From Planctomycetota bacterium (GTDB lineage Bacteria > Planctomycetota > UBA8108 > UBA1146): 58,756 bases of DNA. Location of the stretch: positions 1 through 58,756 of the forward strand of contig JAYZBV010000095.1 of the NCBI GenBank assembly GCA_036338595.1, given 5' to 3'. Below are positions 4,701 to 50,041 of this stretch, in pieces (position 1 is the first letter of the stretch; every line of letters starts with the position of its first letter). The notes beneath the pieces were generated by a model. It searched no databases. It worked only from the letters and a program-made list of their open reading frames with translations, and was not told the origin of the DNA. Position numbers and translations under genes: made by a program.

Positions 4701-6284
4701 ATGCACAAGCAACTTCGGCTGGTTCTCGGTCTGACCCTTGCAGTTGTACTCTTCATCGCATTTTCATCTCCCGACAAAAATCGAGATGCCCCCCTGCCCA
4801 ACATCCTCTTCATCCTCGCCGACGATCTCGGCTACGGAGATGTCGGTGGCTACAACTCCGAATCGAAGGTGCCCACTCCGCACCTTGATCAGTTCGCCAG
4901 CGAGGGGATGCGATTCACCGATGCTCACAGCCCGGCAACGGTCTGTACCCCGACACGCTATAGCGTGATGACGGGCAGGATGGCGTTTCGCACCGGCTAT
5001 CGCGGTGTCTTCACCGGGGTCGGTGGCCCGTGTCTCATCGAGAAGGAACGGCTGACGCTTCCGCAGATGTTGCGAAACCAGGGCTACACCACCGCCTGCT
5101 TCGGCAAGTGGCACATCGGAATGACTTTTCTGGACAAGGATGGAAATCGCATCCAGGTCGGAGGGGTCAAGGGGGTCGAGCAGATCGATTACTCGCGAGC
5201 GATTCCCGACGCACCGATCCATCGCGGTTTCGATCACTTCTACGGCACCGCCTGTTGCCCCACCACCGACTGGCTCTACGCCTACATCGATGGCGACCGC
5301 ATCCCGGTGCCCCCGACAAAACTGCTCGACAAGAGTCAACTGCCGAAGCATCCCTACGGCAACGACTGTCGAGGGGGATGGGTCGCAGACAACTTCGACC
5401 ATGAAGAGGTCGACCTGGTCTTCCTCGAGAAGAGCCAGCAGTTTCTCGAAGAGCACGTCCAGTCCAGCCCCGACACGCCTTTCTTTCTGTTTCACTCGAT
5501 GCAGGCGGTGCATCTGCCTTCCTTTGCCGCCGACCGGTTCCAGGGCAAGAGCGGTGCGGGGCCACACGGCGATTTCATCTTCGAGATGGACACCATCGTC
5601 GGCGAACTGCTGAAGACCCTCGATGATCTCGGTGTCGCCGACAACACGCTGGTGATCTTCGCCAGCGACAACGGCCCGGAAGTACCCACCGTGATCGACA
5701 TGCGCAAAACCCACCAGCATGACGGCGCCCGGCCGTGGCGCGGCGTCAAGCGCGACCAGTGGGAGGGGGGCCACCGCACGCCGTTCATCGTCCGTTGGCC
5801 CGGCAAGGTCAAGGCCGGCACCACCAGCGATCAGTTGCTGAGTCTCACCGATGTGATGGCGACCTGCGCCGAGATCTCCGGTGCCAAGTTGCCCGACGAT
5901 GCAGCAGAGGACAGCTACAACATGCTGCCGGTGCTGCTCGGAACCCAGGGCGATGGACCGATTCGGCGCTACTTGTTGCAGCAGACGATGTCGCTGGCGA
6001 TGTCGATTCGCGATGGACAGTGGAAGTACCTCGACCACAAGGGATCGGGCGGCAACAACTACCAGCGAGACGGGGCCTGGGGAATGAAGCCCTACGCCCT
6101 GAAGAACAACGATCCCGATGCCCCCGGACAGCTCTATGATCTCGCGATCGATCCCGGCGAGACCAAAAACCTGTACAGCCAACATCCCGAGATCGTCGAG
6201 TCGATGAAGGCGCAACTGGAAGCCTTCAAGAAGAGCGGACGAAGCGTTCCGTCTTCAAGAGTCTTCGACCCCATTAAGTGGTGA
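4701..6284 (+). CDS. Arylsulfatase (formylglycine-dependent, Cys-type)
   Basis: PNILFILADDLGYGD, CTPTR, GKWH, SDNG, LYDL..DPGE; N-terminal signal/anchor. Confidence 0.93.
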   Translation: MHKQLRLVLGLTLAVVLFIAFSSPDKNRDAPLPNILFILADDLGYGDVGGYNSESKVPTPHLDQFASEGMRFTDAHSPATVCTPTRYSVMTGRMAFRTGYRGVFTGVGGPCLIEKERLTLPQMLRNQGYTTACFGKWHIGMTFLDKDGNRIQVGGVKGVEQIDYSRAIPDAPIHRGFDHFYGTACCPTTDWLYAYIDGDRIPVPPTKLLDKSQLPKHPYGNDCRGGWVADNFDHEEVDLVFLEKSQQFLEEHVQSSPDTPFFLFHSMQAVHLPSFAADRFQGKSGAGPHGDFIFEMDTIVGELLKTLDDLGVADNTLVIFASDNGPEVPTVIDMRKTHQHDGARPWRGVKRDQWEGGHRTPFIVRWPGKVKAGTTSDQLLSLTDVMATCAEISGAKLPDDAAEDSYNMLPVLLGTQGDGPIRRYLLQQTMSLAMSIRDGQWKYLDHKGSGGNNYQRDGAWGMKPYALKNNDPDAPGQLYDLAIDPGETKNLYSQHPEIVESMKAQLEAFKKSGRSVPSSRVFDPIKW

Positions 6285-6296
6285 TAAAATCGTCCC

Positions 6297-6605
6297 ATGG
6301 CAACAATAGATCAGACTTCATCCGGGGGGCGCATCTTTGCCGGGACCGTGGCGATGGCCGTGGTCGGGGGTGCGGCGTTGTATGGCGGGATCTCGCTGAT
6401 CCTCGGCCGCACCGGTAATGCCTCTACCTACCTGGCCGATCTCGGCATGGTGCTGCTGATCGGCGCAGGCATCGCCAACCTGATCGCCATCGCCATCGGC
6501 CTGCGCTTCATGCTGCTTCAGAGGGTGTTCCTGTGGTGGTGGCCCATCAGCGTGCTGCTGGCGGTGGCAGCGGTCGCCGGCACCGTCGTCGCCCTCAACC
6601 TGTGA
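6297..6605 (+). CDS. Small membrane protein (3 TM), unknown function
   Basis: Three hydrophobic segments; starts 12 bp after sulfatase stop; host-like codon usage. Confidence 0.7.
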   Translation: MATIDQTSSGGRIFAGTVAMAVVGGAALYGGISLILGRTGNASTYLADLGMVLLIGAGIANLIAIAIGLRFMLLQRVFLWWWPISVLLAVAAVAGTVVALNL

Positions 6606-6634
6606 AGAACCTCAACCCCTGCAACGCTGCACGA

Positions 6635-7483
6635 TCAACTCGATGGCTTCTTCTTGCGGTAATCGGCGAGGCGTTTCTTGAGTGCGGGGATCGACTTTGC
6701 GGCCCAGTCCATGTCGATCTTGCCATGTAACTTCACCTTGGTGATGCAGCAGCGGATATTGCCGTTCCAGACAAATCCGACCTGGCCACTGTCCAGTTTC
6801 TTGAGGAACTTGTTGCTGCCGGTTTGCTCGACGGTGCGACCACCTCGATGGGCATTGAAGGTGCCGCCCTTGAGTTCAAAACCGAAATGAACCGGTTCAC
6901 GGAAGATGATCTCCGGAGGTTTCCCGATGCCACCGGCCGGTTTGATGCCTGCGATTCTCATCACCTGGCTGCCAAGGTTGCTCCCGACTCGACGACGCAA
7001 ACCCTTGGTCCAGCCGTAAACCGCCGCAAACATGTCACCGACACTACCGCCGCAAAAGGAATAGTAAGTGGCGTCCATCTTGACCTCTTGTTGCCACACT
7101 GCACTGTGAATCCACTGTCCCTTGTCAGCGAAGTAGATACCGCCTGAAACGCCCACGACGCCGCCCTCGGCACCGCGGATCCATCGAACTGGCTGACCGA
7201 TGCGACCGTATTGCCCCGTCGGGATCGGCGACCAATCCTCGCCAAGTCCCTCGTTCTTCGATGCAAAGTTATAGATCAGCTCGAGCGTTCCCTGTGGCGA
7301 GATCGATTTTGAAGTGGCCTGGAACAACTCGAGAATACGAGAGCGCTCTTCAGCGAGCAGCACGAAGGGCCCCTTGGGAGCGGGAAGATCGAGCGGGTCA
7401 TCCGCAGACAATGGCACCCGCGGCATCAGCAGCAGCACCAGTATCAATATGCCGCAGAAGTAGCCATGACGATGAAGAGCCAT
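6635..7483 (-). CDS. Secreted hypothetical protein, paralog of 1845-2648
   Basis: Signal peptide; shared motifs LFQAT..ISP.GTLEL.Y.F, GQW.H.AVWQ, RVGSNLG.Q, GQVGF.W.G. Confidence 0.8.
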   Translation of the reverse strand: MALHRHGYFCGILILVLLLMPRVPLSADDPLDLPAPKGPFVLLAEERSRILELFQATSKSISPQGTLELIYNFASKNEGLGEDWSPIPTGQYGRIGQPVRWIRGAEGGVVGVSGGIYFADKGQWIHSAVWQQEVKMDATYYSFCGGSVGDMFAAVYGWTKGLRRRVGSNLGSQVMRIAGIKPAGGIGKPPEIIFREPVHFGFELKGGTFNAHRGGRTVEQTGSNKFLKKLDSGQVGFVWNGNIRCCITKVKLHGKIDMDWAAKSIPALKKRLADYRKKKPSS

Positions 7484-7817
7484 CGAACTCCACCTTCCAC
7501 TTGTGGCCCGGATGACAGATCACGCCCGGGCCCAGGCCAATGTGTCCGGTCAGTGTATCCCCTGCCCTCCAGCGCATCGATGATCTCGACGTTGAATCCG
7601 TAGATGGCTCAGATGTGGCCCGCTACCGCTCAAACAGCGCGATCGAATCCAGCAGCGATACCCCATCGAGTTGCTGGTCGGACCACGCTCGGCAGTTGGC
7701 GACCCACGGTGAGAGGTCTATCCTGCACGATGGTATTACCGAACTCCTGACGCACCCCTGCCGCTATCGGCTTGACCCGTGCGACTGCGATGAGTTCCTG
7801 CCCGAAAGGTAGAGTGA

Positions 7818-37423: not shown

Positions 37424-39346
37424 GTGAAACCGGGCAGCAAGGTACCATCCACTTCTGTACTCATCAGTTTCCTGATGAGTATGTTCGTTCTTGTTGGTCC
37501 ATCAGAGAACAACATTGGGTTACATCATCCAGTCTATTCCCAGGATCCTCCTCCAGTGCCATCTGTCGAGGACGATGACCTTCTGGCTGATGATCTATTG
37601 TTGCCCGAGAAGCCTTCAGAAAATACACCTGACCACCAAACGGACATCGACACTTCTCGTGAAGCTCACGGTGACCTCTTCGCAAATAGCGATTTTCCCT
37701 CGGCAGACGAATGTGCCAGCTGCCATCCCAAGCAATACCGGGAATGGTCCGTTTCCCAGCACGCATACTCTCAATTGAGTCCGTTGATGATGTCGATGCA
37801 AATCGCCTTGAATCAGGGCACCAGCTCCACCACCGGAGATTTTTGCGTTCGCTGCCATACCCCCATCGGGTCTGACATCGGCGAAGCCGCCAGCCTCTCG
37901 AACCTCGATCGGCATCCCATCTCAAGAGAGGGAATCACCTGTGTCGTCTGCCACCGCATGAGCGCTCCCTATCGAAAGGTCGCGGGACGACTGGGTCTCG
38001 ACAGGGGAGACATCTTCGATTCAGTGAAGGGCGCCCGAGGTAATGGCGAATTGAATCGCGTTCTCAGTGACCCAAAATCCTTCCAGGTGAATACAAATCG
38101 CAATGATGTAGGTCGCGCCATCCACGCTGAGGTAGAGAAGTTTCCTGAGCTGGAAGACCCCTCATTCTGCGGAAGTTGCCACGAGGTCTACACCCCCAAC
38201 GGATTCCGTGTACACGAAGTTCTCAGCGAGTATCGAAACTCACCCGCAGCGGCACAGGGAATCTCCTGCAACGATTGCCACATGGGAAAGGAAGAGGGGA
38301 TTTCGTCCGGTTATGAACAAGGCCCCGGCGCCGTGGTGGGAGGAGAAACGACTTCCAACAGGAAGCTGACGAATCACTTCTTTGCAGGGCCTGACTACTC
38401 TCTCATCCATCCGGGTATTTTCCCCATCAACAAACAAGCCAAAGAATTCAAAACGATCTCCGAATGGTTCCTCTTCGAAGTAGACAGCGGATGGGGCACC
38501 GACGAGTTCGAAGACGAATGCCCGGAAGACTTCGCGTTCCCCGAAGCGTGGGATTCCATCGATGATCGATACGACGCACGTGAGATTATCGATGAACAAC
38601 TCGAACTACTCGATTGGGCCAAGCAACAGAGGGTCCAGGTGATGCAGCGAGGCTTCGGTCTTTCCGATATCCGTATCACCTCTGCCAGTAAGGAGGGTAT
38701 CGAATTCGAACTCGATGTGAAAAACCTCTCCAACGGACACAATCTTCCCGCCGACAAGATCGGCAGGCTGTTTGTCCTTCAGGTCGAAGTCAAAGATTCA
38801 CAAGGTGATCTCGTTTTCATCTCCGGAGACCGTGACCCTAACGGAGATGTCCGGGATGGATTCTCCCTCTATGTCCGTAACGGCGAGATTCCACTGGATG
38901 AACAACTGTTCAATCTGCAATCAAGAGTGTTGTCAAGAAATGTACGTGGAGGAGAACAGGAACAGGTGCTCACGACCAACAATTCGGTCACTGCCATCCC
39001 GTTCATTCGTCCCGCCTCCAGGCCCAATAACTTTTACGGCCACCCCAAAGGGGTACGAAAACACCGTCGAAGTATCGAGCCTCTTGGGCATCGAACTGCC
39101 GCCTATCGTATCGCAGGGAAATTGCTCTCAGGACGTGGGCCATATTCAGTCAAGGCGCAATTCATCTCTCAATCCGTTCCTGTGAACCTGATTCATCAGA
39201 CGATGCATGTCGGGTTCGAATACGGGCTCTCGCCTCGAGAACTGGCCAAGAAGCTGGTCGAAGGTGCCATCGTGATCGCCGAAAAATCAACGGTGGTAAT
39301 CGTTACAGCAAAGAAGGAAACAGACCTTGATCTCCTCTCAGACTGA
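37424..39346 (+). CDS. Periplasmic pentaheme c-type cytochrome (c554/c552-like heme domain plus C-terminal beta domain)
   Basis: CASCH, CVRCH, CVVCH, CGSCH, CNDCH; hydrophobic N-terminal segment; GTG start after GAGG (ATG 37364 also possible). Confidence 0.88.
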   Translation: MKPGSKVPSTSVLISFLMSMFVLVGPSENNIGLHHPVYSQDPPPVPSVEDDDLLADDLLLPEKPSENTPDHQTDIDTSREAHGDLFANSDFPSADECASCHPKQYREWSVSQHAYSQLSPLMMSMQIALNQGTSSTTGDFCVRCHTPIGSDIGEAASLSNLDRHPISREGITCVVCHRMSAPYRKVAGRLGLDRGDIFDSVKGARGNGELNRVLSDPKSFQVNTNRNDVGRAIHAEVEKFPELEDPSFCGSCHEVYTPNGFRVHEVLSEYRNSPAAAQGISCNDCHMGKEEGISSGYEQGPGAVVGGETTSNRKLTNHFFAGPDYSLIHPGIFPINKQAKEFKTISEWFLFEVDSGWGTDEFEDECPEDFAFPEAWDSIDDRYDAREIIDEQLELLDWAKQQRVQVMQRGFGLSDIRITSASKEGIEFELDVKNLSNGHNLPADKIGRLFVLQVEVKDSQGDLVFISGDRDPNGDVRDGFSLYVRNGEIPLDEQLFNLQSRVLSRNVRGGEQEQVLTTNNSVTAIPFIRPASRPNNFYGHPKGVRKHRRSIEPLGHRTAAYRIAGKLLSGRGPYSVKAQFISQSVPVNLIHQTMHVGFEYGLSPRELAKKLVEGAIVIAEKSTVVIVTAKKETDLDLLSD

Positions 39347-39392
39347 TAAAGCAGGAGATGGCGAGTTCGCATCACCACCGCATTCGGCCTCG

Positions 39393-40778
39393 ATGGCTCG
39401 AATGAAATCCCGCTATATGCTGATCGTCCTGTTGCTGGTCGCGCAAACCGCCTGGTCACAGGATTCAGACAGTTCCAGTCGATTGCCTGACCACCACATT
39501 CCACTGCTCCCGATGGAAGAACTTCAACCCACGCCTCCCATCCTTGAACTGGGGCCGGGCCTGCTGGAAGTGGGTCCACTGGAACGAGGATTTGAATCGC
39601 CAACAGGAGCGATCTGGCGCCCCTCATTCTGGGTGTACGGAAATCTACGTACCGGTGTCAATGTGGTCGACCCTCCCGGCAACGGAAATCGCATGATCGA
39701 ATGGGCCCATCAAATTGAACTATTTGGAAACCTGCAACTCACAGGTACTGAACGAATTCTTGTCGGCATCGAGCCATTACAAGACCGGGGACAGTTCACC
39801 CGCTACACAATGGAACCGGACTCAGATATCGGTTGGCATGACCAAACAAACCTCGACATCACTACTCTCTTCTTTGAAGGAGAATTGAGTGAGCTGTTTC
39901 CTGGCCTCGACAAGAAAAGTCGCGGGCAGTTCGATTACGGTTTCAGTATCGGACGTTGGGAAGTGGACCTGCAAGATGGGATCCTGGTCGACGACAGGAT
40001 GGACGCTATTGGTGTCACCAAATTCTTTTCGGTGCCCAACACGTCGATGATGCGCCTCAGCGTCATCTACGGCTGGAATGAGATGAATCGAAACAACAAT
40101 CAACTTGTCGATGAATCTCGCTTTTTTGCCATTTCAACTGAAACAGATACTTTCTCCAGCACCATCGATGCAGATCTGATTGTCGTCGATGCGCCGGTTC
40201 TCGAGGGTGGCGATGGAATCTATGCGGGATTGGGACTCTCCCGGAGAATCCAGAAGTGGGGACGCACCTGGAACACCACTGTCCGATGGTGTGCCTCTCA
40301 TGCCGAGGAAGAAGACAACCCGATAGTCAGCGATGGAATGATAATATTTGCTGAGGCCTCAACGACCCCATACGGTACAGATGACATCGCGTACGGCACC
40401 TTGTTTCTCGGTATCGACGAATTCACTTCTGCTGCCAGAGGCCCCACCAGGGGTGGACCTCTCGGAAAAGCGGGCTTGCTTTTCGCCGCAGCGGGACTGG
40501 GTAGTTTTCCAGCAGCACTGGGCAATGGTGCAGATCGATCATTTGGAGGTGCCCTTGGATATCAGTGGATCATGACCGGAGGTCGAACCAACTTCAGCGT
40601 AGAGTTAGGAGCTCGGGCACCCACTGAAGGGAATGATGTGGCGACAGGTGCCATCGGAGTGCGGTACCAGAAGAAACTAACCGATCGGATAATGCTCCAA
40701 TGCGATGGTTACTCGAAATTGGAAGAGGATGGTGATAGTGGAAACGGTATTCGTACCGAAATCCTGGTCAGGTTCTGA
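39393..40778 (+). CDS. Putative outer-membrane beta-barrel (porin-like)
   Basis: Signal peptide (AQTAWS), alternating amphipathic beta strands, C-terminal Phe (EILVRF). Confidence 0.7.
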   Translation: MARMKSRYMLIVLLLVAQTAWSQDSDSSSRLPDHHIPLLPMEELQPTPPILELGPGLLEVGPLERGFESPTGAIWRPSFWVYGNLRTGVNVVDPPGNGNRMIEWAHQIELFGNLQLTGTERILVGIEPLQDRGQFTRYTMEPDSDIGWHDQTNLDITTLFFEGELSELFPGLDKKSRGQFDYGFSIGRWEVDLQDGILVDDRMDAIGVTKFFSVPNTSMMRLSVIYGWNEMNRNNNQLVDESRFFAISTETDTFSSTIDADLIVVDAPVLEGGDGIYAGLGLSRRIQKWGRTWNTTVRWCASHAEEEDNPIVSDGMIIFAEASTTPYGTDDIAYGTLFLGIDEFTSAARGPTRGGPLGKAGLLFAAAGLGSFPAALGNGADRSFGGALGYQWIMTGGRTNFSVELGARAPTEGNDVATGAIGVRYQKKLTDRIMLQCDGYSKLEEDGDSGNGIRTEILVRF

Positions 40779-40781
40779 TCG

Positions 40782-42050
40782 ATGTCTTCAGAAGATGTAA
40801 TGTCCTGGATCGGCTTCGGGATCGTAGCTGTCGTCGGCCTGGAGATCTTGCTCTCGCTGGCGTCTGCACTGAGGAGAACAAATCAGAATATTCGCTTCAG
40901 ACAACTGGAGACACAGAAGCTACTGCAAGAACTCGATCAAGCCCCTGACATCGTCACGGCACAAGATCCACGCAAGGCCTGGCGCGGATATCGTCGATTC
41001 ATTCTGGACGAAAAAGTAACTGAAGCGTTGAACACATGCTCTTTATACCTTCGCCCTCTGGATGGCGAACCCCTTCCACCATTTGAACCGGGTCAACATC
41101 TAGGATTTCAACTGCGCATACCAGGATCCAAGCGACCGACAGTGAGAAACTACTCGCTCTCGTGCGGTCCTGGAGATCAAGATCGATATCGAATCACCGT
41201 GAAGAAAATCCCGCCTCCTCTGAACAAACCGGATGTACCCCCCGGTGCAGGCTCATCGTTCCTTCATGATAATCTGAAGGTCGGAGATCTGCTCGAAGTC
41301 TGTAGCCCTGCAGGAAAGTTCACTCTCGATCGATTGGATCCACGGCCAGCAGTCTTCCTGGCGGGCGGAATCGGTGTCACGCCACTACTGAGCATGCTGG
41401 AGGCCATCTGTGCTGAACGACTGGATAGAAAGTGCTACTTCATTCATGCCGTAAGAAATCGACAAGATCACCCCTTTCGCGATCACATCGCGCGCCTCGT
41501 GGAACGTCATGAGAATGTTGAACTCCACATCTTCTACAGCGAGCCCGATGAACCAGATCAGGAGACGGACCATGTCCATCACGGATATGTCGATATCAGC
41601 CAGATAAAAAAACTCACAGGAGATGACGATCTTCAGTATTACATCTGTGGCCCTCCTCCAATGATGAACTCCCTGGTTCCTTCTCTGGAAGAATCAGGGG
41701 TACCGGCCGATAGCATATTGAGGGAAGCGTTTGGGCCGGCTTCGATCAAGAAAAAGAAATCGGCAACAACATCATCGACGCAGACCGATGCATCGGTGCT
41801 TCCCAAGATTCTCTTCGAGACGAGCGAAAGGACCATCCAGTGGGATGGAGAGAGTTCCATACTGGATATTGCCGAAGATGCTGGGATCATGATCGAAAGT
41901 AGCTGTCGCTCGGGGACCTGTGGCACCTGTGAAGTTCGCCTGAAACATGGGAAGGTGACCTACGAGGAGGAGCCATCTGCAGAGATCAGGGATGGCCACT
42001 GTCTGGCATGTGTCGCAATACCCATCGATGATATCGAAATCCAGGCATGA
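40782..42050 (+). CDS. Membrane-anchored FAD/NAD(P)H oxidoreductase with C-terminal [2Fe-2S] ferredoxin (FNR/Hcr/PaaE-like)
   Basis: N-terminal TM; RNYSLS, GAGSSFLH, AGGIGVTP, YICGPPPMM, EAFG, CRSGTCGTC...C. Confidence 0.92.
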   Translation: MSSEDVMSWIGFGIVAVVGLEILLSLASALRRTNQNIRFRQLETQKLLQELDQAPDIVTAQDPRKAWRGYRRFILDEKVTEALNTCSLYLRPLDGEPLPPFEPGQHLGFQLRIPGSKRPTVRNYSLSCGPGDQDRYRITVKKIPPPLNKPDVPPGAGSSFLHDNLKVGDLLEVCSPAGKFTLDRLDPRPAVFLAGGIGVTPLLSMLEAICAERLDRKCYFIHAVRNRQDHPFRDHIARLVERHENVELHIFYSEPDEPDQETDHVHHGYVDISQIKKLTGDDDLQYYICGPPPMMNSLVPSLEESGVPADSILREAFGPASIKKKKSATTSSTQTDASVLPKILFETSERTIQWDGESSILDIAEDAGIMIESSCRSGTCGTCEVRLKHGKVTYEEEPSAEIRDGHCLACVAIPIDDIEIQA

Positions 42051-42095
42051 TCGAGTAGCGCAGATTCGCTGAAAACAAACCTAGGAGTTGTCATC

Positions 42096-43130
42096 GTAAA
42101 CAAGATCTTCACCGTCGGAATACTCGCGCTGTGCTCGCTGGGGTTCCTGGATCTGTCGGGTGCCCGAGACGATGGAATCACACCACCCGGAGTGGGGCCC
42201 GGCCACGATCCCGCGAGCATCCAGGGAGCCGATCAGTGTATCGAATGCCACAAGCACTCCGGAAGTATCTGGGAGTCGACCCCTCATTTCGGCACCATCA
42301 CAGAGATGCCGCGATCGGAGGAGGGGCGTGCGATTGCAAAAAGGATGGGGATCAAGCGCATCAAGAGCGAGAGTCTCTGCCTCGATTGTCATGCCACCAC
42401 AAAGTTGGTTGCAGAGAAGACCAAACCCGTTTCGGGGATCTCCTGCGAATCTTGCCATGGAGCGGCCAGCGGCTGGCTGAAAAGACATGGCGAGTTCAGT
42501 GGCAAGGAAGAAGGGCAAGAAACCGCCACCGAGATCGAGGCCCGCTGGAATGATGCGCAAGTGGCAGGGATGCTGAGACCAGCGATGATACTGGAGATCG
42601 CCAGAAATTGTGTCAGCTGTCATGTCATCCCGAATGAAGCCCTGATCAACACCGGACTGCATTCCACCGGAAGCGACTTCGAACTGGTGGCATGGACCCA
42701 GGGTGTCATCCGACACAACAACTTCTATACCAAGGGAAAAGAAAACAAGGTTGCCTCCATCGAACGACAACGATTGTTCCACATCGTGGGAATCCTCGCG
42801 GAGATGGAAACCGTGCTGCGCGCTGTCGCCACCGCAACCAGCGGAGGAGATTATGCAGTCAAGAATGCCAGGAGGTTTGCTCGCTTGAGGAAGCGCCTCG
42901 ACGCCGTCGACCAGTTGACTGACATCCCACAGGTCTCTGAAGCGATGGCGGCGATCAAGGAGCTCAAGATGAGCCTGAAAAACCAGCCAGCCATCGCCAG
43001 TGCTGCAGATCAGATCACATCTGCAGTCAATGCCTTTGCTGCGATTCATGACGGTAGCCAGCTGCAGAGCATCGACTCGCTTCTGGCGAAGCCAGAGAAC
43101 TACAGGGGAGGGTCGCCAGAGTCCCCGTGA
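42096..43130 (+). CDS. Tetraheme c-type cytochrome (c554-like); start codon uncertain, apparently non-canonical
   Basis: CIECH, CLDCH, CESCH, CVSCH; frame is open upstream of GTG 42192 and encodes a signal peptide (NKIFTVGILALCSLGFLDLSGA) behind an AGGAG RBS. Confidence 0.82.
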   Translation, partial: VNKIFTVGILALCSLGFLDLSGARDDGITPPGVGPGHDPASIQGADQCIECHKHSGSIWESTPHFGTITEMPRSEEGRAIAKRMGIKRIKSESLCLDCHATTKLVAEKTKPVSGISCESCHGAASGWLKRHGEFSGKEEGQETATEIEARWNDAQVAGMLRPAMILEIARNCVSCHVIPNEALINTGLHSTGSDFELVAWTQGVIRHNNFYTKGKENKVASIERQRLFHIVGILAEMETVLRAVATATSGGDYAVKNARRFARLRKRLDAVDQLTDIPQVSEAMAAIKELKMSLKNQPAIASAADQITSAVNAFAAIHDGSQLQSIDSLLAKPENYRGGSPESP

Positions 43131-43142
43131 TGGCCTCGGTGA

Positions 43143-44840
43143 ATGGTGTCTGGCATGGAGAACTCAACACTGCGAGTCAGCCGCCCAAAGCGATGGGATC
43201 AACCCTTCGGAGAAGAGCCTCTTCCCGAGACTCTCGTGAACTGGGTACTGACCGACTCTGTCCTCTCCGTGGCTCTTTCTGACTATCTACAGGGCAATAC
43301 CCCGATCGAGGATATCCTCCGCAACGACGCCAGAAAAGTCGACATCGATGCAGGTGAGATACTCATTCGAAAGGGGGACTACGGCGGCTCTGTCTTCCTT
43401 TGTATGTCGGGAAAACTTCGCGTACTGCTCGATCCTGCTGGAGAGAATGCGCTCGATACACGAGAGAAAGTGAACCAGAAGTCATGGATCGAAGCGATCT
43501 CGCAACTGTGGCAAAACTCCAGGCTGCCCGAGACACGCTCTGATCTGTCGTTTTCAGATGCACGACAATCTCAAGAATCCATCATCAAGAAAACTCGAAT
43601 GCTACCGAGGGCGCTTCCTGAATTTTTGACCAGTTACAGCTCCAGAGAGATCTATCCCGGAGAATTGACCGGCGAGATCGCTGCACTGAGGAGAAGCAGC
43701 CGAACCGCCACCATCTTCGCAGAAGAGCCTTCTTCACTGATCGAAATCCGCTGGCAGGGACTCCGAGACATCTGCCGCAGGTCGAAGTCATTGTGGGAAC
43801 TCCTCGAAGAGCGCATTCGCACCTATTCTCTCCAGTTGGTTTTTTCGGATTTGCCTCTGCTCGAGTCGATTCCAGAACAGTCCAAGAAGTCGCTGGTCCA
43901 GGAAATCCGATTTGAACGACATGGTGATGAGAACTGGAACAGAGACCTCAGATCATCGATGGGAAATCGACAGGAAATGCTATCGCGCGAAACACTCGTT
44001 GTGAAATCGGGTCAACACCTGGATGGTGTTTTCATCTTGATGAATGGGTTCGCCAGAATCTCCAAGGATACCGGTGGGACCATCGAAACCAGGGATTACC
44101 TGCGTCCTGGTGATGTATTTGGAATCGATGAGATCCTCTCATCCATCGAATCAGGTGTGCCTAGCAATTCTTCCAGCAGTCTTCGATGCATCGGTGCAAC
44201 CGACCTGCTTCTCATCTCAACACCCTCTTTCAAGAAGCACATTTATCCCTACATAGAGAAGCAGGACCTCCTCGACAACTTCAGCCGTAGTCGCGTAGCA
44301 GGAAAAATTACTGGAGGGATGCTCGACTTTCTTCTCGATCACAGAACCATCAATGGCAATCAGACGATGATCATCGACCTGAACCGTTGCACCGACTGCG
44401 ATGATTGCGTCAAGGCCTGTGCCGTCACACACGACGGCAATCCAAGGTTCATTCGAGAGGGATACCGCCACGCCCAGTTGATGGTTGCTACCGCCTGCAT
44501 GCACTGCTGTGATCCGGTCTGTCTCATCGGGTGTCCGACCGGTGCCATTCATCGTGACCCTCACAGCGGAAATGTCATCATTCAGGATTCCACCTGCATT
44601 GGCTGTGGCACATGCGTTGAAGCGTGCCCCTATGACAACATCCGTACCGTGGAAATTCGAGATCCTTCAGGTGCCCCGATCATCGACATCGAGTCAGGGG
44701 AACCTCTCCTTCGAGCAACCAAGTGCGATCTCTGCAGCGATCAGCCTTCCGGTCCTGCCTGTGTCAACGCCTGCCCTCATGATGCTCTTCACCGTGTTGA
44801 TTTCGGAGCCCGAGATCCGCTGCTGAGCAGGAGAGGTTGA
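43143..44840 (+). CDS. Fusion of two cyclic-nucleotide-binding domains with a DmsB/NrfC-type 4x[4Fe-4S] ferredoxin
   Basis: GEILIRKGD..., GEIAAL..RTAT; second degenerate CNB; CTDCDDCVKAC, CMHCCDPVCLIGCP, CIGCGTCVEACP, KCDLC...ACVNACP; no export signal. Confidence 0.9.
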   Translation: MVSGMENSTLRVSRPKRWDQPFGEEPLPETLVNWVLTDSVLSVALSDYLQGNTPIEDILRNDARKVDIDAGEILIRKGDYGGSVFLCMSGKLRVLLDPAGENALDTREKVNQKSWIEAISQLWQNSRLPETRSDLSFSDARQSQESIIKKTRMLPRALPEFLTSYSSREIYPGELTGEIAALRRSSRTATIFAEEPSSLIEIRWQGLRDICRRSKSLWELLEERIRTYSLQLVFSDLPLLESIPEQSKKSLVQEIRFERHGDENWNRDLRSSMGNRQEMLSRETLVVKSGQHLDGVFILMNGFARISKDTGGTIETRDYLRPGDVFGIDEILSSIESGVPSNSSSSLRCIGATDLLLISTPSFKKHIYPYIEKQDLLDNFSRSRVAGKITGGMLDFLLDHRTINGNQTMIIDLNRCTDCDDCVKACAVTHDGNPRFIREGYRHAQLMVATACMHCCDPVCLIGCPTGAIHRDPHSGNVIIQDSTCIGCGTCVEACPYDNIRTVEIRDPSGAPIIDIESGEPLLRATKCDLCSDQPSGPACVNACPHDALHRVDFGARDPLLSRRG

Positions 44841-44843
44841 CCG

Positions 44844-45674
44844 ATGGCAACCCTCAGAAAGCCGCCGAGGATCGTGGTCCTGCTGACCATCGCCATATTG
44901 ATCATCTTCTGGATCTCGGTCAGCGATGCGGAACGATCGCTGGAAGATCCGGCATCCACGAGTGGTTGGTTTCTGATCGCCAGCTTCGTGCTGCTATGCA
45001 TCTATGGACTCCGGAAGCGATTGCCATTCCTGCCGCTGGGCAAGACATCGACCTGGCTGATGTTGCACCTTGCCACTGGCTGGATCAGCGGTTTCATGTT
45101 TCTGGTACACACCGAATATCGTTTTCCCACAGGCAATTTTGAAATTCTACTGTGGAGTGGATACGCATTTCTCCTTGTCAGTGGAATCGGTGGTTGGATC
45201 TTGATGCGTCAAATCCCTCAACCCTTGCACGACTCTCAGGAGGCGATACTCCCGGCCAGGATTCCCCATGAAATCGCCCAGATCAGGGATGAAGCGGATC
45301 AACAGATGACAGGACTCAGCAAGACGGGATCCGATTCGACCTTCGACCAGGTCTACATCGAGTTACTCAGGCCCTTCCTCTTTCAAGGACCCGGAATATT
45401 TCCGCAGGGACGAGGTGGAAACCAGTACATCCCTCTGCTGCTGGAGCAGCAGTACTCAACACGATTCAATACAGCAAACATCGATTCGGACAGTTGCGAG
45501 GAACAGATCCTGGAACTGGTTGCGAAGAAGGCTCGACTGGATCGACAATTACGGCTCCATCTATGGATGAGAGGGTGGCTACTGATACACCTCCCTCTCA
45601 CCGGGGCGATGGTGCTGATCATCCTGCTTCATCTGATTCTTGTGTTCTCCCACGCGGCAGAGTTGGGGATTTGA
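44844..45674 (+). CDS. Integral membrane protein, ferric-reductase-like cytochrome b candidate
   Basis: About 5 TM; intramembrane His in WLMLH, FLVH, WLLIH, ILLH; LRKR motif. Confidence 0.7.
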   Translation: MATLRKPPRIVVLLTIAILIIFWISVSDAERSLEDPASTSGWFLIASFVLLCIYGLRKRLPFLPLGKTSTWLMLHLATGWISGFMFLVHTEYRFPTGNFEILLWSGYAFLLVSGIGGWILMRQIPQPLHDSQEAILPARIPHEIAQIRDEADQQMTGLSKTGSDSTFDQVYIELLRPFLFQGPGIFPQGRGGNQYIPLLLEQQYSTRFNTANIDSDSCEEQILELVAKKARLDRQLRLHLWMRGWLLIHLPLTGAMVLIILLHLILVFSHAAELGI

Positions 45675-47704
45675 TGGCGAACCAACGTGGTCCATTCGAT
45701 GCAAGAGTGACCCGGTACAACAGACCGGACCAGCCATTTTCCTGTGGCCGCACTGGTCATCCTTGTCAGCATGGACCCGGCCCCGACGGCCGCTGCTCCG
45801 AGTCCGACCATCGCTGCATTCCTGTACCGAGTGAAGGTAGACAGAGACGCAACATGCTTCTGCGGGCCCTGTTTCTCACCTTCGGTCTGGGTCTCATCGT
45901 CATCTCGGGAGACTGGACCGTATCGCTCGATCCAGGGGCCAGAAGTAGCGCCCACTCACAGCTCCAATGTTCACAGTGCCATGATCCGGAACTGTCCACT
46001 TCGCTCACCTTCTTGAGCAGAGGATTGCTTGGTATCGGAGATTCTCACTCTTCCAGACAGTGTCTCGAATGCCACGACATGGGTGAAAATGCCGTCGATC
46101 CGCATTCCGTGTCTCCGCAGCGATGGGAAAAGATTCTCGCTGGAGGCTCGCCAACTTCCGATGGGATCGCATCGATACCGTGTGCTCGCTGTCATGTAGA
46201 ACACCGAATCGAGTCGCCAGCATCAGGACTCAACGATGCTCGCTGTCAGGCGTGTCATCAAAATCGCTTCCCATCCTTTCACGAGGGGCACCCGGAGTTT
46301 GGTGATGAATATGGAGTTCCCACCAGGGCGATCCAGTTTGATCACTTCAGCCACGCCAATCGTCACTTCATGGAAAACCCGGATATGGCACCAGAGCGTT
46401 GTGATCAATGCCACACCCTCGGTCCGGATGGTAACCGGATGCAAGTGAAGCCCTTTTCGATGTCTTGCGCACGATGCCATGAGGATTCCATCGGAGGTCG
46501 TGGCCCTGCCGGTAAGGATCTGGGAATCGAGGTGCTGGCCATCCCCGACATCGATACCGCTACGCTTCGCGAAGCAGGGATGGAGTTGGGTGACTGGCCC
46601 TTCAATGGAACCGAGTTCCCGAAATCATGGAGTCGACGGTGGATCCGCCATGCGTTGGATACCGATCCGTCGCTCTCAGAACTTTCAGGAATTGAACTCT
46701 GGTCTCTCGAGGGACAATCGGAAGCCGTTCTCAACTCCGCCAGCCACCTGGCCTGGGGCTACAAGGAAGCCCTTCTCGATGCCGCCGACGGAAATCTGGA
46801 ATCCCTGATACTCAGGATGGTGCCCTCAGGAGCTGACAACCTGACCCATGATGAAACGGCCCGACTCGCGGCTCTGCTGCCTCGCTCATTGCTGAAGGAG
46901 GCGAGCGATGCCTGGTTTCCCCATCTCTCCGAGGAGGTGGCTCTTCATCGTGCCGGTGAGGATCTTCCCGGCAAGGATCCTGCTGCTGCCCGCCAACCAG
47001 AGGAGGACGATCCACCGGGGGATGGAGCCGAGGATGATCTGCTCGGCGATGATCTACTCGGAGATGATCTACTCGAAGAAGATTTGCTCGATGATGATCT
47101 GCTCGATGGGGACTTGCTCGATGAGAATGCCGTGGACGCAGCCAGTTCGACGGAAGCAACGCCGAGTTCGTCGTCGACCAACCCCGCTCGCTGGGCCAAT
47201 GCTGGTGGCTGGTACCGGGTAGATTCTTCGATCCGATACCGTCCGGTGCAGCATGCCGACAGTTTCCTGCGCGCCTGGGCTACCCTGGAAGCAAGAACCG
47301 GCGATCAGGATCCCGATTCGGCACACGTCTTCGCGCAGATCTTTTCAACAGACTCTCCCGGAGCGTGTGCGTCCTGTCATGTAGGACTTCAGCACGGCAG
47401 TGATCAGGTGCGATGGCAGCCAGATTCTCACCGCGAAGAACCATTCCCTCGCTTCACTCACTTCTCCCACGGGCCTCATATTCTCGGCAATTCCGACATC
47501 AGCTGTCTCGGTTGCCACGAGCCCGCAACGAACAAGGATCTTGCCAATGATTGGAAATCCGTGACACGCAATCAGTGCACCGATTGCCATGGTCATCCTA
47601 TCGAGGATCGCTGTACAACCTGTCACGATTATCACGCAGGCCCCAGAAGCGGTGTCTTCGGTGTCACGGATCTGGATATCTTGCGGAGTCCAGAAGATCG
47701 TTGA
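45674..47704 (+). CDS. Membrane-anchored decaheme c-type cytochrome (cytochrome c3-like)
   Basis: 10 CxxCH (6 N-terminal, 4 C-terminal), FDHFSH and FSHGPH c3-like His motifs, TM after a Cys-rich N-terminus; TGATG overlap. Confidence 0.88.
   Translation: MANQRGPFDARVTRYNRPDQPFSCGRTGHPCQHGPGPDGRCSESDHRCIPVPSEGRQRRNMLLRALFLTFGLGLIVISGDWTVSLDPGARSSAHSQLQCSQCHDPELSTSLTFLSRGLLGIGDSHSSRQCLECHDMGENAVDPHSVSPQRWEKILAGGSPTSDGIASIPCARCHVEHRIESPASGLNDARCQACHQNRFPSFHEGHPEFGDEYGVPTRAIQFDHFSHANRHFMENPDMAPERCDQCHTLGPDGNRMQVKPFSMSCARCHEDSIGGRGPAGKDLGIEVLAIPDIDTATLREAGMELGDWPFNGTEFPKSWSRRWIRHALDTDPSLSELSGIELWSLEGQSEAVLNSASHLAWGYKEALLDAADGNLESLILRMVPSGADNLTHDETARLAALLPRSLLKEASDAWFPHLSEEVALHRAGEDLPGKDPAAARQPEEDDPPGDGAEDDLLGDDLLGDDLLEEDLLDDDLLDGDLLDENAVDAASSTEATPSSSSTNPARWANAGGWYRVDSSIRYRPVQHADSFLRAWATLEARTGDQDPDSAHVFAQIFSTDSPGACASCHVGLQHGSDQVRWQPDSHREEPFPRFTHFSHGPHILGNSDISCLGCHEPATNKDLANDWKSVTRNQCTDCHGHPIEDRCTTCHDYHAGPRSGVFGVTDLDILRSPEDR
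47033..47122 (+). repeat. Intragenic 6 x 15-bp degenerate tandem repeat encoding (D/E/G)DLL(G/E/D)
   Basis: GATGATCTGCTCGGC-like units in frame within the decaheme gene. Confidence 0.85.
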
Positions 47705-47727: not shown

Positions 47728-48918
47728 TCAGCGATTTCGATGCCATCGCTCGATGCGCGTGATGGCTTCATCGAGAATCTCCTCACTTGTGGCAAATGAG
47801 ATCCTCAGGTGCCCTTTTGCCCCCGGCCCGAACCAACGCTCGTCGCCCGGGACCACGGCAACACGTGCCCGCTCCAGAATTTCTGCTGCCAGATCATTGG
47901 CATCCATTCCAGTTTCAACGATATCAGGGAACAACAGGTAGGTTCCCTCCGGCTCGGGGCAACAAAATCCATCCAGTGCATCGAGACGTGGTGCTGCGAA
48001 GCGACTCATCCTCTTCAGGTGTTCGATGAACCCGTCACGCCACCCATCGCATCGACCCAGCGCAGCTTCCGCTGCGACCTGTGACAACACCGAAGCACCA
48101 AATGTTGTTCGAGGAGCCCCAGAAGCTTCGAGCACGCGATCGGCGAGTTCGACGCTACCCGAATGGATGAAACCGATTCTCAATCCTGCCAGTCCATAGG
48201 TCTTGCTGAACCCGGATACCGTGATGGTTCGCCGGGCCACCTCATCCGACAATGAAGCGATACTCGTCATCTGGATGTCACCGAGTACGATGTCTGCCCA
48301 GACCTCGTCACTGATGATCACCAGATCGTGATCGATGGCCAACTTGGCGATGCGCTGCAATTCTTCGACTCGAAGCACCCTGCCCGTTGGATTGTGCGGA
48401 TTGCAGACCAGGATGGCGCGAGTGCGATCAGAGATCTTCTGTTCCAGAACATCCGGGGCAATGGCACCGCTACCTCGCTCGAGTGGACACCGAACCACCG
48501 TTGCACCGGCCTGTTCGGAACAATGCGGCAGTAGAAAATCGACCGGGTCAAATGTGATCGCTTCATCCCCGGATCCCAGCACTGCACGACAAGCCGCCCA
48601 CAACGCCGAAGCAGCACCGTCCGTCGCCAGGATCTGATCAGTGCTGGAAGGAACCTGACGCTCCTCCATCCGCTTCGACACGGCTTCGCGAAACCCGAGC
48701 AATCCCCTCGTCGGTCCGTAACCAAGGATTCCATCGTCAACATGGGCACGGATCGATTCGAGAATCTCCCTGGCGACAGGAAAGTCTGGATCCGCAGCAG
48801 TCAACGGGATGACATCGTCATCCACCTCTGCCCATCGCAGATTGAATGCCCGCTGGCGAAGCAGAGTGAGATCCACCGTGTCCGGGGTAAATGAACGGGT
48901 GGGGTCATCGAAGTTCAA
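47728..48918 (-). CDS. PLP-dependent aminotransferase class I/II (AspC/MalY-like)
   Basis: CNPHNPTG, ISDEVW, GFSKTYGLAGLRIG, LRISFAT. Confidence 0.92.
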   Translation of the reverse strand: MNFDDPTRSFTPDTVDLTLLRQRAFNLRWAEVDDDVIPLTAADPDFPVAREILESIRAHVDDGILGYGPTRGLLGFREAVSKRMEERQVPSSTDQILATDGAASALWAACRAVLGSGDEAITFDPVDFLLPHCSEQAGATVVRCPLERGSGAIAPDVLEQKISDRTRAILVCNPHNPTGRVLRVEELQRIAKLAIDHDLVIISDEVWADIVLGDIQMTSIASLSDEVARRTITVSGFSKTYGLAGLRIGFIHSGSVELADRVLEASGAPRTTFGASVLSQVAAEAALGRCDGWRDGFIEHLKRMSRFAAPRLDALDGFCCPEPEGTYLLFPDIVETGMDANDLAAEILERARVAVVPGDERWFGPGAKGHLRISFATSEEILDEAITRIERWHRNR

Positions 48919-48946
48919 CAGCCAGCCTCCACGACAACCCGACGAC

Positions 48947-50041
48947 TCAGGAGCAGATGGGAACGATCTGCTGGGTGCGGCGAGTAGGGTTCAGAAACTG
49001 CGACTGCATCCGGCGACCCATCTGCAGGCGCGCTCTCAGGATCGGAATCCGGAACCTGGAGAACTCGCAGAAAATTCCATCGAGTAGTTCCGGCTCCGGC
49101 GCCCTGGAAACATGATGGTCGAGGAGATCGCCGATGGCGAGAGCATCCTCGATCGCAGATCCGGTGCCCTGGCTGGTGAAGGTCAACAATGGATGGGCTG
49201 CATCTCCTACCAGCAGCACATTTCTTCGATGAAAGCACGATGGAAGATCCCTGTCCGTGGTCCTCCACAGGTGGGTCTGATTCAGATCCGACCCCAGGAT
49301 GATCTCGGCGACAGGATCAGGCCACTTTTTCACTTCTTCCCGTAGCCAGGCCAGTTTCTCCTGCTGCGGTGAAAAAATCATCGGCCAGCGCTGCGGATCA
49401 CACTGGATGTACCAGGTGACGCTTCCCGTGGAGGTGGGAACCAGTCCGATGGAGATCCCCTCGCCTGTACGACAGTACTTGAGAAAGCGTCCGTTCAGGA
49501 GTTCCGGGATTCCGTCTCCCCGGTACTTTCCGACCAGTTCGACGCTCTGCACCTGACGCAAAGCAGGACCTGGAGTCCAGCTGCTCCGTACTTTTGAGCG
49601 AACACCATCGGCCCCGATGAAAAGATCCGCTTCGACGCGAGTTCCATCCGAAAATATCGCCGCTCGAGCGACCCCTTGCTGATCCGATTCAAAGCCAAGA
49701 AATGATTTTCCCTGGTGAAGAATCCCCGGCTCCAGGGAAGCGAGGAGAGCGTTCTGAAGCTCGGCTCTCTCGATTCCTACCGTGTCATGAAGGCCCTGGC
49801 TGAGGATCGATCGACCATCTGCATCGCGAATATCCGACTGTTCCACCGAGTATCCCATCGAATCCTGATGGACCCCGAGGCGTTGCAAGCCCTGTCGGGC
49901 GGAAGGAGTAAGAAGCAGACCGAAGCCACCGGTGTTGGTGCCAGGTCTCCGCTCGAAAACGGAGACTTCATGGCCACTTTGGCGCAATCTGAGCGCCGAG
50001 GCCAGTCCGGCTGTGCTTCCACCGATGACTGCGATCCGCAT
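48947..50041 (-). CDS. FAD-dependent monooxygenase (salicylate hydroxylase/UbiH-like)
   Basis: IAVIGGSTAGL, GADGVRS, LVGDAAHP...QG...AIED. Confidence 0.9.
   Translation of the reverse strand: MRIAVIGGSTAGLASALRLRQSGHEVSVFERRPGTNTGGFGLLLTPSARQGLQRLGVHQDSMGYSVEQSDIRDADGRSILSQGLHDTVGIERAELQNALLASLEPGILHQGKSFLGFESDQQGVARAAIFSDGTRVEADLFIGADGVRSKVRSSWTPGPALRQVQSVELVGKYRGDGIPELLNGRFLKYCRTGEGISIGLVPTSTGSVTWYIQCDPQRWPMIFSPQQEKLAWLREEVKKWPDPVAEIILGSDLNQTHLWRTTDRDLPSCFHRRNVLLVGDAAHPLLTFTSQGTGSAIEDALAIGDLLDHHVSRAPEPELLDGIFCEFSRFRIPILRARLQMGRRMQSQFLNPTRRTQQIVPICS

Follow-up and report, generated by a model that had tools for sequence, protein, structure and literature searches.

The window analysed here, a stretch of 58,756 nucleotides (contig JAYZBV010000095.1 of assembly GCA_036338595.1, Planctomycetota bacterium), carries at 37424–47704 a seven-gene operon for three multiheme c cytochromes, a porin, a flavin reductase, an iron-sulfur (Fe-S) protein and a membrane protein. 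The question raised by this locus is where its electrons go. The original prediction had read the genes as a trans-envelope conduit, with a chain linking NAD(P)H to the porin. Predicted structures suggest no wire that reaches the cell surface but an outward chain from cytoplasmic NADH, ending at a five-heme protein docked on the periplasmic opening of a narrow outer-membrane channel. The window copy is an ordinary member of a system named previously as Ptd and as PCC4, and the ptd gene names are used below.

37424–39346, + strand: ptdA, divergent paralog; exported pentaheme c cytochrome, PHC/c552/MccSep-like, with a C-terminal Ig-like domain
39393–40778, + strand: ptdB; predicted outer-membrane barrel with 18 strands and an OprD/AlgE/MOMP fold, carrying a long conserved loop (343–382) and an N-terminal periplasmic arm
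40782–42050, + strand: ptdC; flavohemoglobin-reductase-like FAD/NAD(P)H reductase, anchored in the membrane and carrying a [2Fe-2S] domain at the C-terminus
42093–43130, + strand: ptdD; exported tetraheme c554-type cytochrome with a probable ATC start
43143–44840, + strand: ptdE; cytoplasmic protein with two cyclic nucleotide (cNMP)-binding (CNB) domains and a DmsB/HydN-type 4x[4Fe-4S] domain
44844–45674, + strand: ptdF, the PCC4 inner-membrane protein; five transmembrane (TM) helices, two WX3HX13H motifs and SGXXG; putative di-heme b electron carrier
45674–47704, + strand: ptdG; decaheme cytochrome anchored in the inner membrane, its N-terminus Cys-rich ahead of the TM helix

All seven open reading frames (ORFs) were found on the + strand and tightly packed, with intergenic gaps of 46, 3, 42, 12, 3 and −1 nt from gene 1 to gene 7. 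The cytochrome genes contain 5 (gene 1), 4 (gene 4) and 10 (gene 7) CxxCH motifs, and this total of 19 compares with 28 for the whole window when all six reading frames are counted. Pfam domains were of the c554 type in genes 1 and 4 and of the c3/c7 type in gene 7. The layout foreseen earlier, that is seven co-oriented packed genes with 5, 4 and 10 hemes, a barrel, an anchored FNR-[2Fe-2S] protein, a protein with two CNB domains and four [4Fe-4S] clusters, and a four-His membrane protein, was borne out by the ORF, motif and domain analyses.

From the domains, motifs, gene order, barrel fold and predicted PtdA–PtdB contact obtained by computation, we infer the cofactor binding, carrier order, direction, gating and catalysis of the following scheme: a regulated outward electron chain ending at a porin-gated periplasmic heme enzyme. 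We put it forward tentatively, its chance being a little short of even. Cytoplasmic NAD(P)H would reduce the membrane-tethered PtdC (FAD, [2Fe-2S]), from which electrons would pass to the four [4Fe-4S] clusters of PtdE, and cAMP or cGMP at the first CNB domain of PtdE would switch the flow. The inner membrane would be crossed via two b hemes in PtdF, and the electrons would then reach PtdA by way of the anchored decaheme PtdG and the soluble tetraheme PtdD. PtdA would be clamped at the periplasmic mouth of PtdB with its heme-2 pocket, the active site in MccSep, facing the pore, and would reduce a small solute entering by that pore; our guess is a small nitrogen, sulfur or halogen oxy-compound. 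Movement of electrons from cytoplasm to periplasm spends membrane potential, so that the chain would serve detoxification, assimilation or redox relief and not energy conservation, which would explain the switch. By analogy, the inner side would work most like NOX and MsrPQ, and the outer side like the ext/MccSep arrangement.

Identity and spread of the operon

The gene set was named ptdABCDEFG by Elbon, Stewart and Glass (bioRxiv 10.1101/2023.11.21.568154). In the passages of that paper considered here, the products are a pentaheme cytochrome with a beta-sandwich, a porin, an FAD/NAD(P) oxidoreductase, a tetraheme cytochrome, a cNMP/4Fe-4S protein, a ferric-reductase-like membrane protein and a decaheme cytochrome. 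The hosts are marine Planctomycetes, Proteobacteria and Nitrospirales, PtdA is homologous to T. tepidum c552, and the function is termed completely unknown. The window showed the same seven gene types in the same order with 5, 4 and 10 hemes, as matched to the paper's description. The c552 (5ZE8) match in the window PtdA covers both the heme region and the C-terminal region, as the published definition asks. Two differences were found: the paper gives PtdE two 4Fe-4S clusters, whereas the 16 conserved cysteines found here imply four, and the window copy has a divergent ptdA paralog beside the porin gene, with a second, stand-alone ptdAB pair on contig C88 of the same genome.

PCC4 was described by He, Barco, Emerson and Roden (2017, PMC5566968), in the passages considered, as a porin and multiheme cytochromes (MHCs) with 4, 5 and 10 hemes together with a five-TM protein containing SGXXG and two WX3HX13H motifs. 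In subgroup II, which includes marine Planctomycetes, a PF13247 gene lies upstream of the five-TM protein. The window contains the porin and the 4-, 5- and 10-heme MHCs with no extracellular MHC, PF13247 (E 6e-11) in 43143–44840 directly upstream of the membrane protein, and a 5-TM protein with W71-H75-H89 and W245-H249-H263 (TM3 and TM5) and S113-G114-G117 (TM4). By every sequence feature tested, the operon is a member of Ptd/PCC4; already named twice, it is not new. By the features tested it is neither MccSep nor MtrAB.

The earlier statement that this was not a recognised characterised complex therefore holds in one part: the complex has been named, and no functional experiment on Ptd/PCC4 was found in the literature searched, which left most subscription journals outside. 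Beyond these two papers, the searches for further descriptions gave one passing mention of PCC4 (PMC13264449). In the parts covered, the same system was read as a candidate for iron oxidation by extracellular electron transfer (EET) in one paper and for iron reduction in the other (PMC5566968; bioRxiv 10.1101/2023.11.21.568154). Added here to what those parts contain are the predicted docking geometry of PtdA and PtdB, a PtdA without the Cys and Sec of MccSep, the optional nature of PtdC and PtdE, and recurrent cyclases and FHA domains. The docking geometry and the cyclase link make Ptd/PCC4 more testable.

A porin-alignment search of a species-level genome set confirmed at least 495 relatives among at least 597 candidate stretches, which shows the porin-encoding cluster to be widespread. 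The best 80 were kept as loci; being the top porin matches they lean to close relatives, and kin among them are not independent. These best 80 of at least 495 span Planctomycetota, Alpha- and Gammaproteobacteria, Verrucomicrobiota, Nitrospirales, Poribacteria, Binatia and others. Gene order was counted in the 56 loci with at least 8 kb of downstream flank. The exact order ABCDEFG was found in 30 of these, 12 from the 13 closest relatives and 18 from other lineages, so that the expected co-conservation of the seven genes was confirmed in several phyla. PtdA adjoins the porin in 79/80 loci, and the sole exception begins at a contig edge. All seven genes were present in two cultured species among the loci, Tistlia consotensis (L037) and Ferruginivarius sediminum (L035). 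No eighth gene kept across lineages was seen in the 80 loci, as judged by cluster sizes and strands with the flanking clusters only partly annotated. PtdA is the best-conserved subunit, with a median identity across loci of 49% versus 29% for both PtdF and PtdG.

The outer-membrane channel and the pentaheme cytochrome

The ptdB product ends in Phe and was predicted by AlphaFold2 to form a beta-barrel (predicted local distance difference test, pLDDT, 87.8) with 18 membrane strands counted from the DSSP list, in agreement with the barrel proposed before for 39393–40778. It had no Pfam or NCBIfam match and no sequence relative in the PDB by profile search. In fold comparisons (Foldseek and VIA-align), MOMP, OprD-family channels, AlgE and chitoporin ranked first, with VIA Z scores of 27.2 for OpdQ (root mean square deviation, rmsd, 3.0; 323 aligned) and 27.0 for MOMP versus 13.0 for MtrB (6r2q_B, rmsd 8.7). 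By its modelled fold, PtdB is thus an 18-strand OprD/MOMP-type channel and not a large MtrB-type barrel. Among the nine outer loops, the long loop 343–382 and a short one show the highest conservation (0.72, versus 0.31–0.51 for the other seven), and conserved charges were found outside the PtdA interface at R86, R188, R349, R408, R454, E103, D204, D261, D438 and E456. This pattern of loop and charge conservation would fit a solute filter.

Three modelling runs of PtdB 24–461 with PtdA 97–650 gave a score of 0.88 (0.88, 0.88 and 0.87) versus 0.00 for the best control. The score mark was reached by 116/157 solved complexes and by 2/215 mismatched pairs, counts that are only rough with the alignments used. 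The runs share at least 86% of contacts with a partner pLDDT of at least 86, and 358/359 contacts were confident in run 1, which supports a predicted binding of PtdA to PtdB. Since no PDB chain resembles PtdB in sequence, recall from a similar complex is less likely, but still possible. With the PtdB C-terminus taken as periplasmic, the PtdB side of the interface comprises the N-terminal arm, 8/8 periplasmic turns, six residues from the long loop, and strand residues of which 55 fall in periplasmic and 7 in outer halves. The tightest pairs in the lumen involve PtdA 545–550 in the Ig-domain region, and PtdA 170–173, the segment after heme 2, contacts the N-terminal arm of PtdB. Only 1/25 PtdA CxxCH residues lies on the listed PtdB interface, which includes PtdA 285, 460 and 465, at or beside the positions aligned with C239 and the U325 loop of MccSep. 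In this heme-free model PtdA forms a lid on the periplasmic opening of PtdB; the part that enters the lumen is an Ig-domain segment and not hemes, and no heme chain crosses.

This geometry bears on outward EET, in which Fe(III) complexes, humics or other extracellular acceptors would be reduced via a porin-cytochrome conduit, also one option in the parts of Elbon et al. covered here. Such a route would fit the porin and 19 c hemes in one operon and the predicted PtdA–PtdB binding, needed by any porin-cytochrome model, as well as the high transcription of ptdAB reported for Alphaproteobacteria of oxygen-deficient zones (ODZ; Elbon et al., bioRxiv 10.1101/2023.11.21.568154). We nevertheless consider it unlikely, since the barrel fold resembles OpdQ/MOMP (Z 27) more than MtrB (Z 13), the PtdA contacts lie on the periplasmic half of PtdB, and the operon has no extracellular cytochrome gene; a lipobox-like motif was found by a crude regex in 4/84 PtdA and 0/67 PtdD sequences. 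MtrCAB, MtoAB and PioAB likewise have a multiheme cytochrome bound to an outer-membrane barrel, as predicted for Ptd, but differ from it in that PtdB is OprD-like with 18 strands, the heme-free PtdA–PtdB model holds no MtrA-like chain inside the barrel, and the operon lacks a CymA/NapC partner. The proposal of a conduit through the porin is thereby weakened. Chelated Fe(III) entering the pore would merge EET with a porin-gated enzyme. Should the geometry of a porin-capped enzyme and the cNMP switch both hold, PCC4/ptd would have to be dropped as a marker of EET, and a route by which a second messenger gates electrons leaving the cytoplasm would come within reach of direct tests.

PtdA showed similarity to T. 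tepidum c552 (5ZE8; E 1e-7 by single sequence, 2e-16 by profile) and a weak match to MccSep 9WT8/9WT9 (E ~0.003), and an ESM Atlas search returned only unnamed c554-type multiheme clusters. MccSep-like proteins are grouped as the PHC family, and extKL of the Geobacter ext cluster share that cluster with a porin gene, extI (PMC11976967, in part). In the part of the MccSep report considered here, heme 2 is ligated by C239, U325 lies on a loop of the Ig domain that follows GHxxP, and polysulfide reduction requires both residues (bioRxiv 10.1101/2025.11.18.688581). PtdA could thus be taken for an MccSep-type polysulfide or selenite reductase in an operon parallel to the ext cluster, as both combine a pentaheme region with an Ig-like domain, fall in the same fold family by profile, and have a GHxxP that aligns with the Sec loop and a porin gene in the (Geobacter) cluster. 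However, none of 83 PtdA sequences has Cys at the regions aligned with C239 or U325 and the ORFs are uninterrupted, which argues that PtdA is not an MccSep. The NF040886 (NCBIfam) score was 32 versus a cut-off of 250, and PtdA is ~200 residues longer than MccSep/ExtKL and lacks their heme-ligating Cys and their Sec; the Ptd system also has an NAD(P)H and cNMP module attached. We regard this identity as very improbable. PtdA is probably a terminal heme enzyme.

In the PtdA pocket, E285 was found in 77/83 sequences and H459, P462 and R468 in 83/83. The pocket is of the type E284/H500 in 62/83 and H284/F500 in 17/83. All 17 of the latter come from the window's close relatives, and this type probably reflects a single evolutionary event; the window PtdA has His at 284. 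Tandem ptdA pairs occur in 5/13 closest loci, and, compared along its full length, the window PtdA resembles the upstream paralog of such pairs more closely (4 relatives). The window retains only the upstream, divergent ptdA type, with an altered loop after GHxxP. The second ptdAB pair of the same genome, which has the usual pocket type, is found by itself on contig C88 (1362–4692, L101) and is 62% and 52% identical to the window's.

The inner-membrane and cytoplasmic modules and the direction of electron flow

PtdC was shown to contain Pfam NAD_binding_1, FAD_binding_6 and Fer2 domains behind an N-terminal hydrophobic helix (TM 12–30), and matched the NCBIfam Hmp model with E 1.9e-72, below its cut-off. 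FNR-[2Fe-2S] proteins normally hand electrons on from NAD(P)H. In PtdE, 16 Fe-S cysteines are conserved in 41–42 of 42 aligned sequences, which indicates four clusters. The CNB1 cassette G-E...R-(T/S)-A is kept (G177 and E178 in 42/42, R187 in 37/42), and CNB2 has no conserved Arg in the aligned sequences, so that cNMP binding is predicted for CNB1 only.

The AlphaFold2 model of PtdF (pLDDT 92.1) shows five long hydrophobic helices, with a soluble helical region inserted. Among 143 sequences H89, H249 and H263 are invariant and H75 is kept in at least 90%, and the two His pairs with 14-residue spacing form a di-heme b pattern, in line with the b-heme membrane subunit expected earlier; PtdF would accordingly be a di-heme b electron carrier. 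It gave one sub-threshold Pfam match and nothing above the Pfam/NCBIfam cut-offs, no Foldseek match at E ≤0.001 and only noise in a PDB profile search. PtdD matched PF13435 (E 4e-14). PtdG has one TM helix before its hemes, with C24, C31, C41 and C48 in 42–43 of 53 aligned sequences. By regex, this Cys-rich segment was found in 39/42 loci with both ptdG and ptdE and in 3/16 loci with ptdG without ptdE, the three being Nitrospirales with a small ferredoxin; the segment may dock a cytoplasmic Fe-S partner. The closest analogy for these modules is with NOX/FRD and MsrPQ-Fre, in which, as proposed for Ptd, an FNR-type reductase feeds a di-heme b membrane domain, with outward electrons and regulatory domains. 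Ptd differs in being split into separate proteins with a polyferredoxin, 19 c hemes and a porin, and PtdF has no Pfam FRD match.

Besides ABCDEFG, the 56 loci showed the orders ABDFG (8), ABCDFG (6), ABD (3), ABDEFG (3), AB (2) and four single arrangements. In four Nitrospirales loci a small [2Fe-2S] protein alone fills the C slot and E was not found. PtdF scored 36–119 bits in ABDFG loci versus 222–359 for full-length copies in loci with ptdE, which phylogenetic distance may explain. PtdE was found in 17/27 genomes of the same taxonomic family as the window. PtdC (FNR) and PtdE (CNB-ferredoxin) are optional in the Ptd family. The self-contained NAD(P)H chain of the original prediction fits the window copy but not the Ptd family, given eight ABDFG loci that lack both proteins and four Nitrospirales loci in which only a small [2Fe-2S] protein takes the place of FNR.

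The operon can also be read as inward electron uptake, the direction that He et al. modelled for PCC4 (PMC5566968): Fe(II), Mn(II) or a reduced sulfur or nitrogen compound would be oxidised at PtdAB, electrons would pass via PtdF to the quinone pool, and PtdC and PtdE would tap off reductant. The passages setting out that model place PCC4 in four Zetaproteobacteria iron oxidisers and in Hyphomicrobium, liken the HX13H motifs of the membrane protein to cytochrome b/FRD, and are silent on cNMP domains and on any path from NAD(P)H in the cytoplasm. The presence of the system in Nitrospirales loci, and of ABDFG loci in which PtdF must have another partner than PtdC and PtdE, would agree with uptake. 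On the other hand, most loci come from varied marine lineages that are not known as metal oxidisers, and NAD+ reduction from such donors is steeply uphill by established potentials, although 39/56 loci carry a gene for an FNR or a ferredoxin. Uptake therefore appears unlikely, though marginally less so than outward EET.

The cyclic-nucleotide link suspected from the window gained support from the intact CNB1 cassette and from class III cyclases beside 7/80 loci. Among the 56 loci whose flank reaches 3.5 kb on the upstream side, five have the cyclase upstream of ptdA at no more than ~0.9 kb. The genome of the window has 4 class III cyclases in 2.9 Mb, which gives an estimate of <1% per flank of that kind. 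FHA domains are fused to 4/7 cyclases, and in a scan of 18 selected variant proteins FHA was also found fused into PtdC in L050 and L071 and onto PtdE in L050 (L050 13081–16946; L071 11425–13080). On contig C88, a class III nucleotide cyclase with TPR (5777–7588) lies ~1.1 kb away from the stand-alone ptdAB pair; C88 has a similar GC content, and contamination is possible at the 7.2% estimated for this genome. At L078 (1804–6492), an FHA-GAF-cyclase gene runs straight into ptdA, and the ORF upstream resembles a planctomycete Ser/Thr kinase (N-terminus only, by eye).

A sensing relay would also involve such domains: PtdAB would read an external ligand or redox state, the heme chain would carry the signal inward, and PtdE (cNMP, FHA, Fe-S) would be a signalling hub and not a metabolic valve. 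The CNB and FHA domains, the neighbouring cyclases, the TPR-cyclase near the second ptdAB pair and a patchy spread in largely aerobic lineages (the porin was found in 35/301 genomes drawn from the phylum) point that way. We think it improbable, as Pfam showed no DNA-binding, kinase or other output domain in the seven proteins, 19 c hemes are costly for a sensor, and cyclases adjoin only 7/80 loci. A more far-reaching form of the outward chain is possible but doubtful, namely that Ptd/PCC4 is neither an Mtr-type wire nor quinone-linked but a bacterial counterpart of NOX. It would be a valve switched by cAMP/cGMP and phosphothreonine, in which NAD(P)H and membrane potential are spent on powering a multiheme enzyme of a new kind under its own substrate-selective porin, on a marine solute as yet without an assigned enzyme (e.g. 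iodate, an N-oxide, a sulfur oxyanion, chelated Fe(III) or O2). A second specificity would then be provided by the duplicated PtdA of this lineage, in which the pocket loop is remodelled.

Several points weigh against a regulated outward chain ending at PtdA. The conserved PtdA histidines (H102, H133, H254, H338, H459, plus H349 and H284 or H500) would be enough for five bis-His hemes, which would make PtdA a carrier, and the weak match to MccSep may be off in register by perhaps ~one residue. The PtdA–PtdB complex was modelled heme-free and its coordinates were not viewed, so that the assignment of periplasmic and outer sides rests on strand numbering. PtdF resembled hydrogenase cytochrome b (VIA Z 8.4, rmsd 4.1, 132 aligned) and STEAP4 (Z 7.7) within helical-bundle noise. 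PtdC and PtdE are missing from the eight ABDFG loci, where another donor must thus exist. The cyclase baseline comes from one genome, and the number elsewhere may be higher; related planctomycetes make up two of the five loci with upstream cyclases.

Start codons, neighbouring genes and host genome

The ptdA gene starts with GTG preceded by GAGGA, and the ATG of ptdG at 45674 overlaps the ptdF stop. In ptdD no ATG, GTG or TTG precedes the signal-peptide-like stretch in the window sequence, whereas ATG was found ahead of it in 11/11 relatives checked; ptdD therefore probably starts at a rare ATC codon at 42093, 5 nt after AGGAG (window 42081–42098). Without the ATC start, ptdD would have no signal peptide. 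The stretch was found in 20 DNA runs from 8 studies, from marine or seawater metagenomes wherever the habitat was stated, and no RNA run was among those listed. An assembly artefact at the ptdA–ptdB junction was rejected, as contigs span it in 3/4 runs checked (one possibly the source sample). A promoter and terminator scan of the stretch gave chance-level results only.

Acidic DDLL-type repeats were seen in the PtdA N-terminal region (~37570–37600) and the PtdG linker (~47020–47130). A loose pattern of this type was found in 44/84 PtdA, 22/59 PtdG and 1/50 PtdC homologs, and the length of the PtdG repeat differs between strains. Genes labelled from their translations as PLP aminotransferase-like and FAD monooxygenase-like (47728–50041, − strand) converge on the operon end, and trail the cluster in ~11 close relatives only.

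The host genome (88.3% complete, 7.2% contamination) contains one heme-copper oxidase closest to CtaD, cytochrome c assembly genes and 15 ORFs with at least 4 CxxCH motifs. NirK and NiFe hydrogenase were not found in it, which at 88.3% completeness is not proof of absence, and cytochrome d1 gave one weak partial match. A separate molybdoenzyme partner for PtdE is unlikely: the single molybdoenzyme match, closest to PhsA and far below cut-off, sits on a different contig and has an Fe-S gene of its own close by. It belongs to a three-gene set of Fe-S, membrane and molybdopterin proteins (G000:C77 62319–66667, L106), with no obvious Tat signal on the catalytic subunit.

Related proteins were also seen in other settings. 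At L102 (10874–14712), a cNMP/4Fe-4S relative of PtdE lies between NuoE/F-like and soluble-transhydrogenase-like flavoprotein genes, which, by labels taken from translations, is another cytoplasmic setting for a PtdE-type ferredoxin. At L103 (2529–13678; same contig type as L090), ptdAB is divergent beside a 17-heme cytochrome, a PtdF-like protein, a cNMP-ferredoxin and a 15-heme cytochrome, which suggests that inner modules are interchangeable. Downstream of the Nitrospirales copies (4 loci), a heavy-metal P-type ATPase and an MMPL protein were found (L064 16148–21236).

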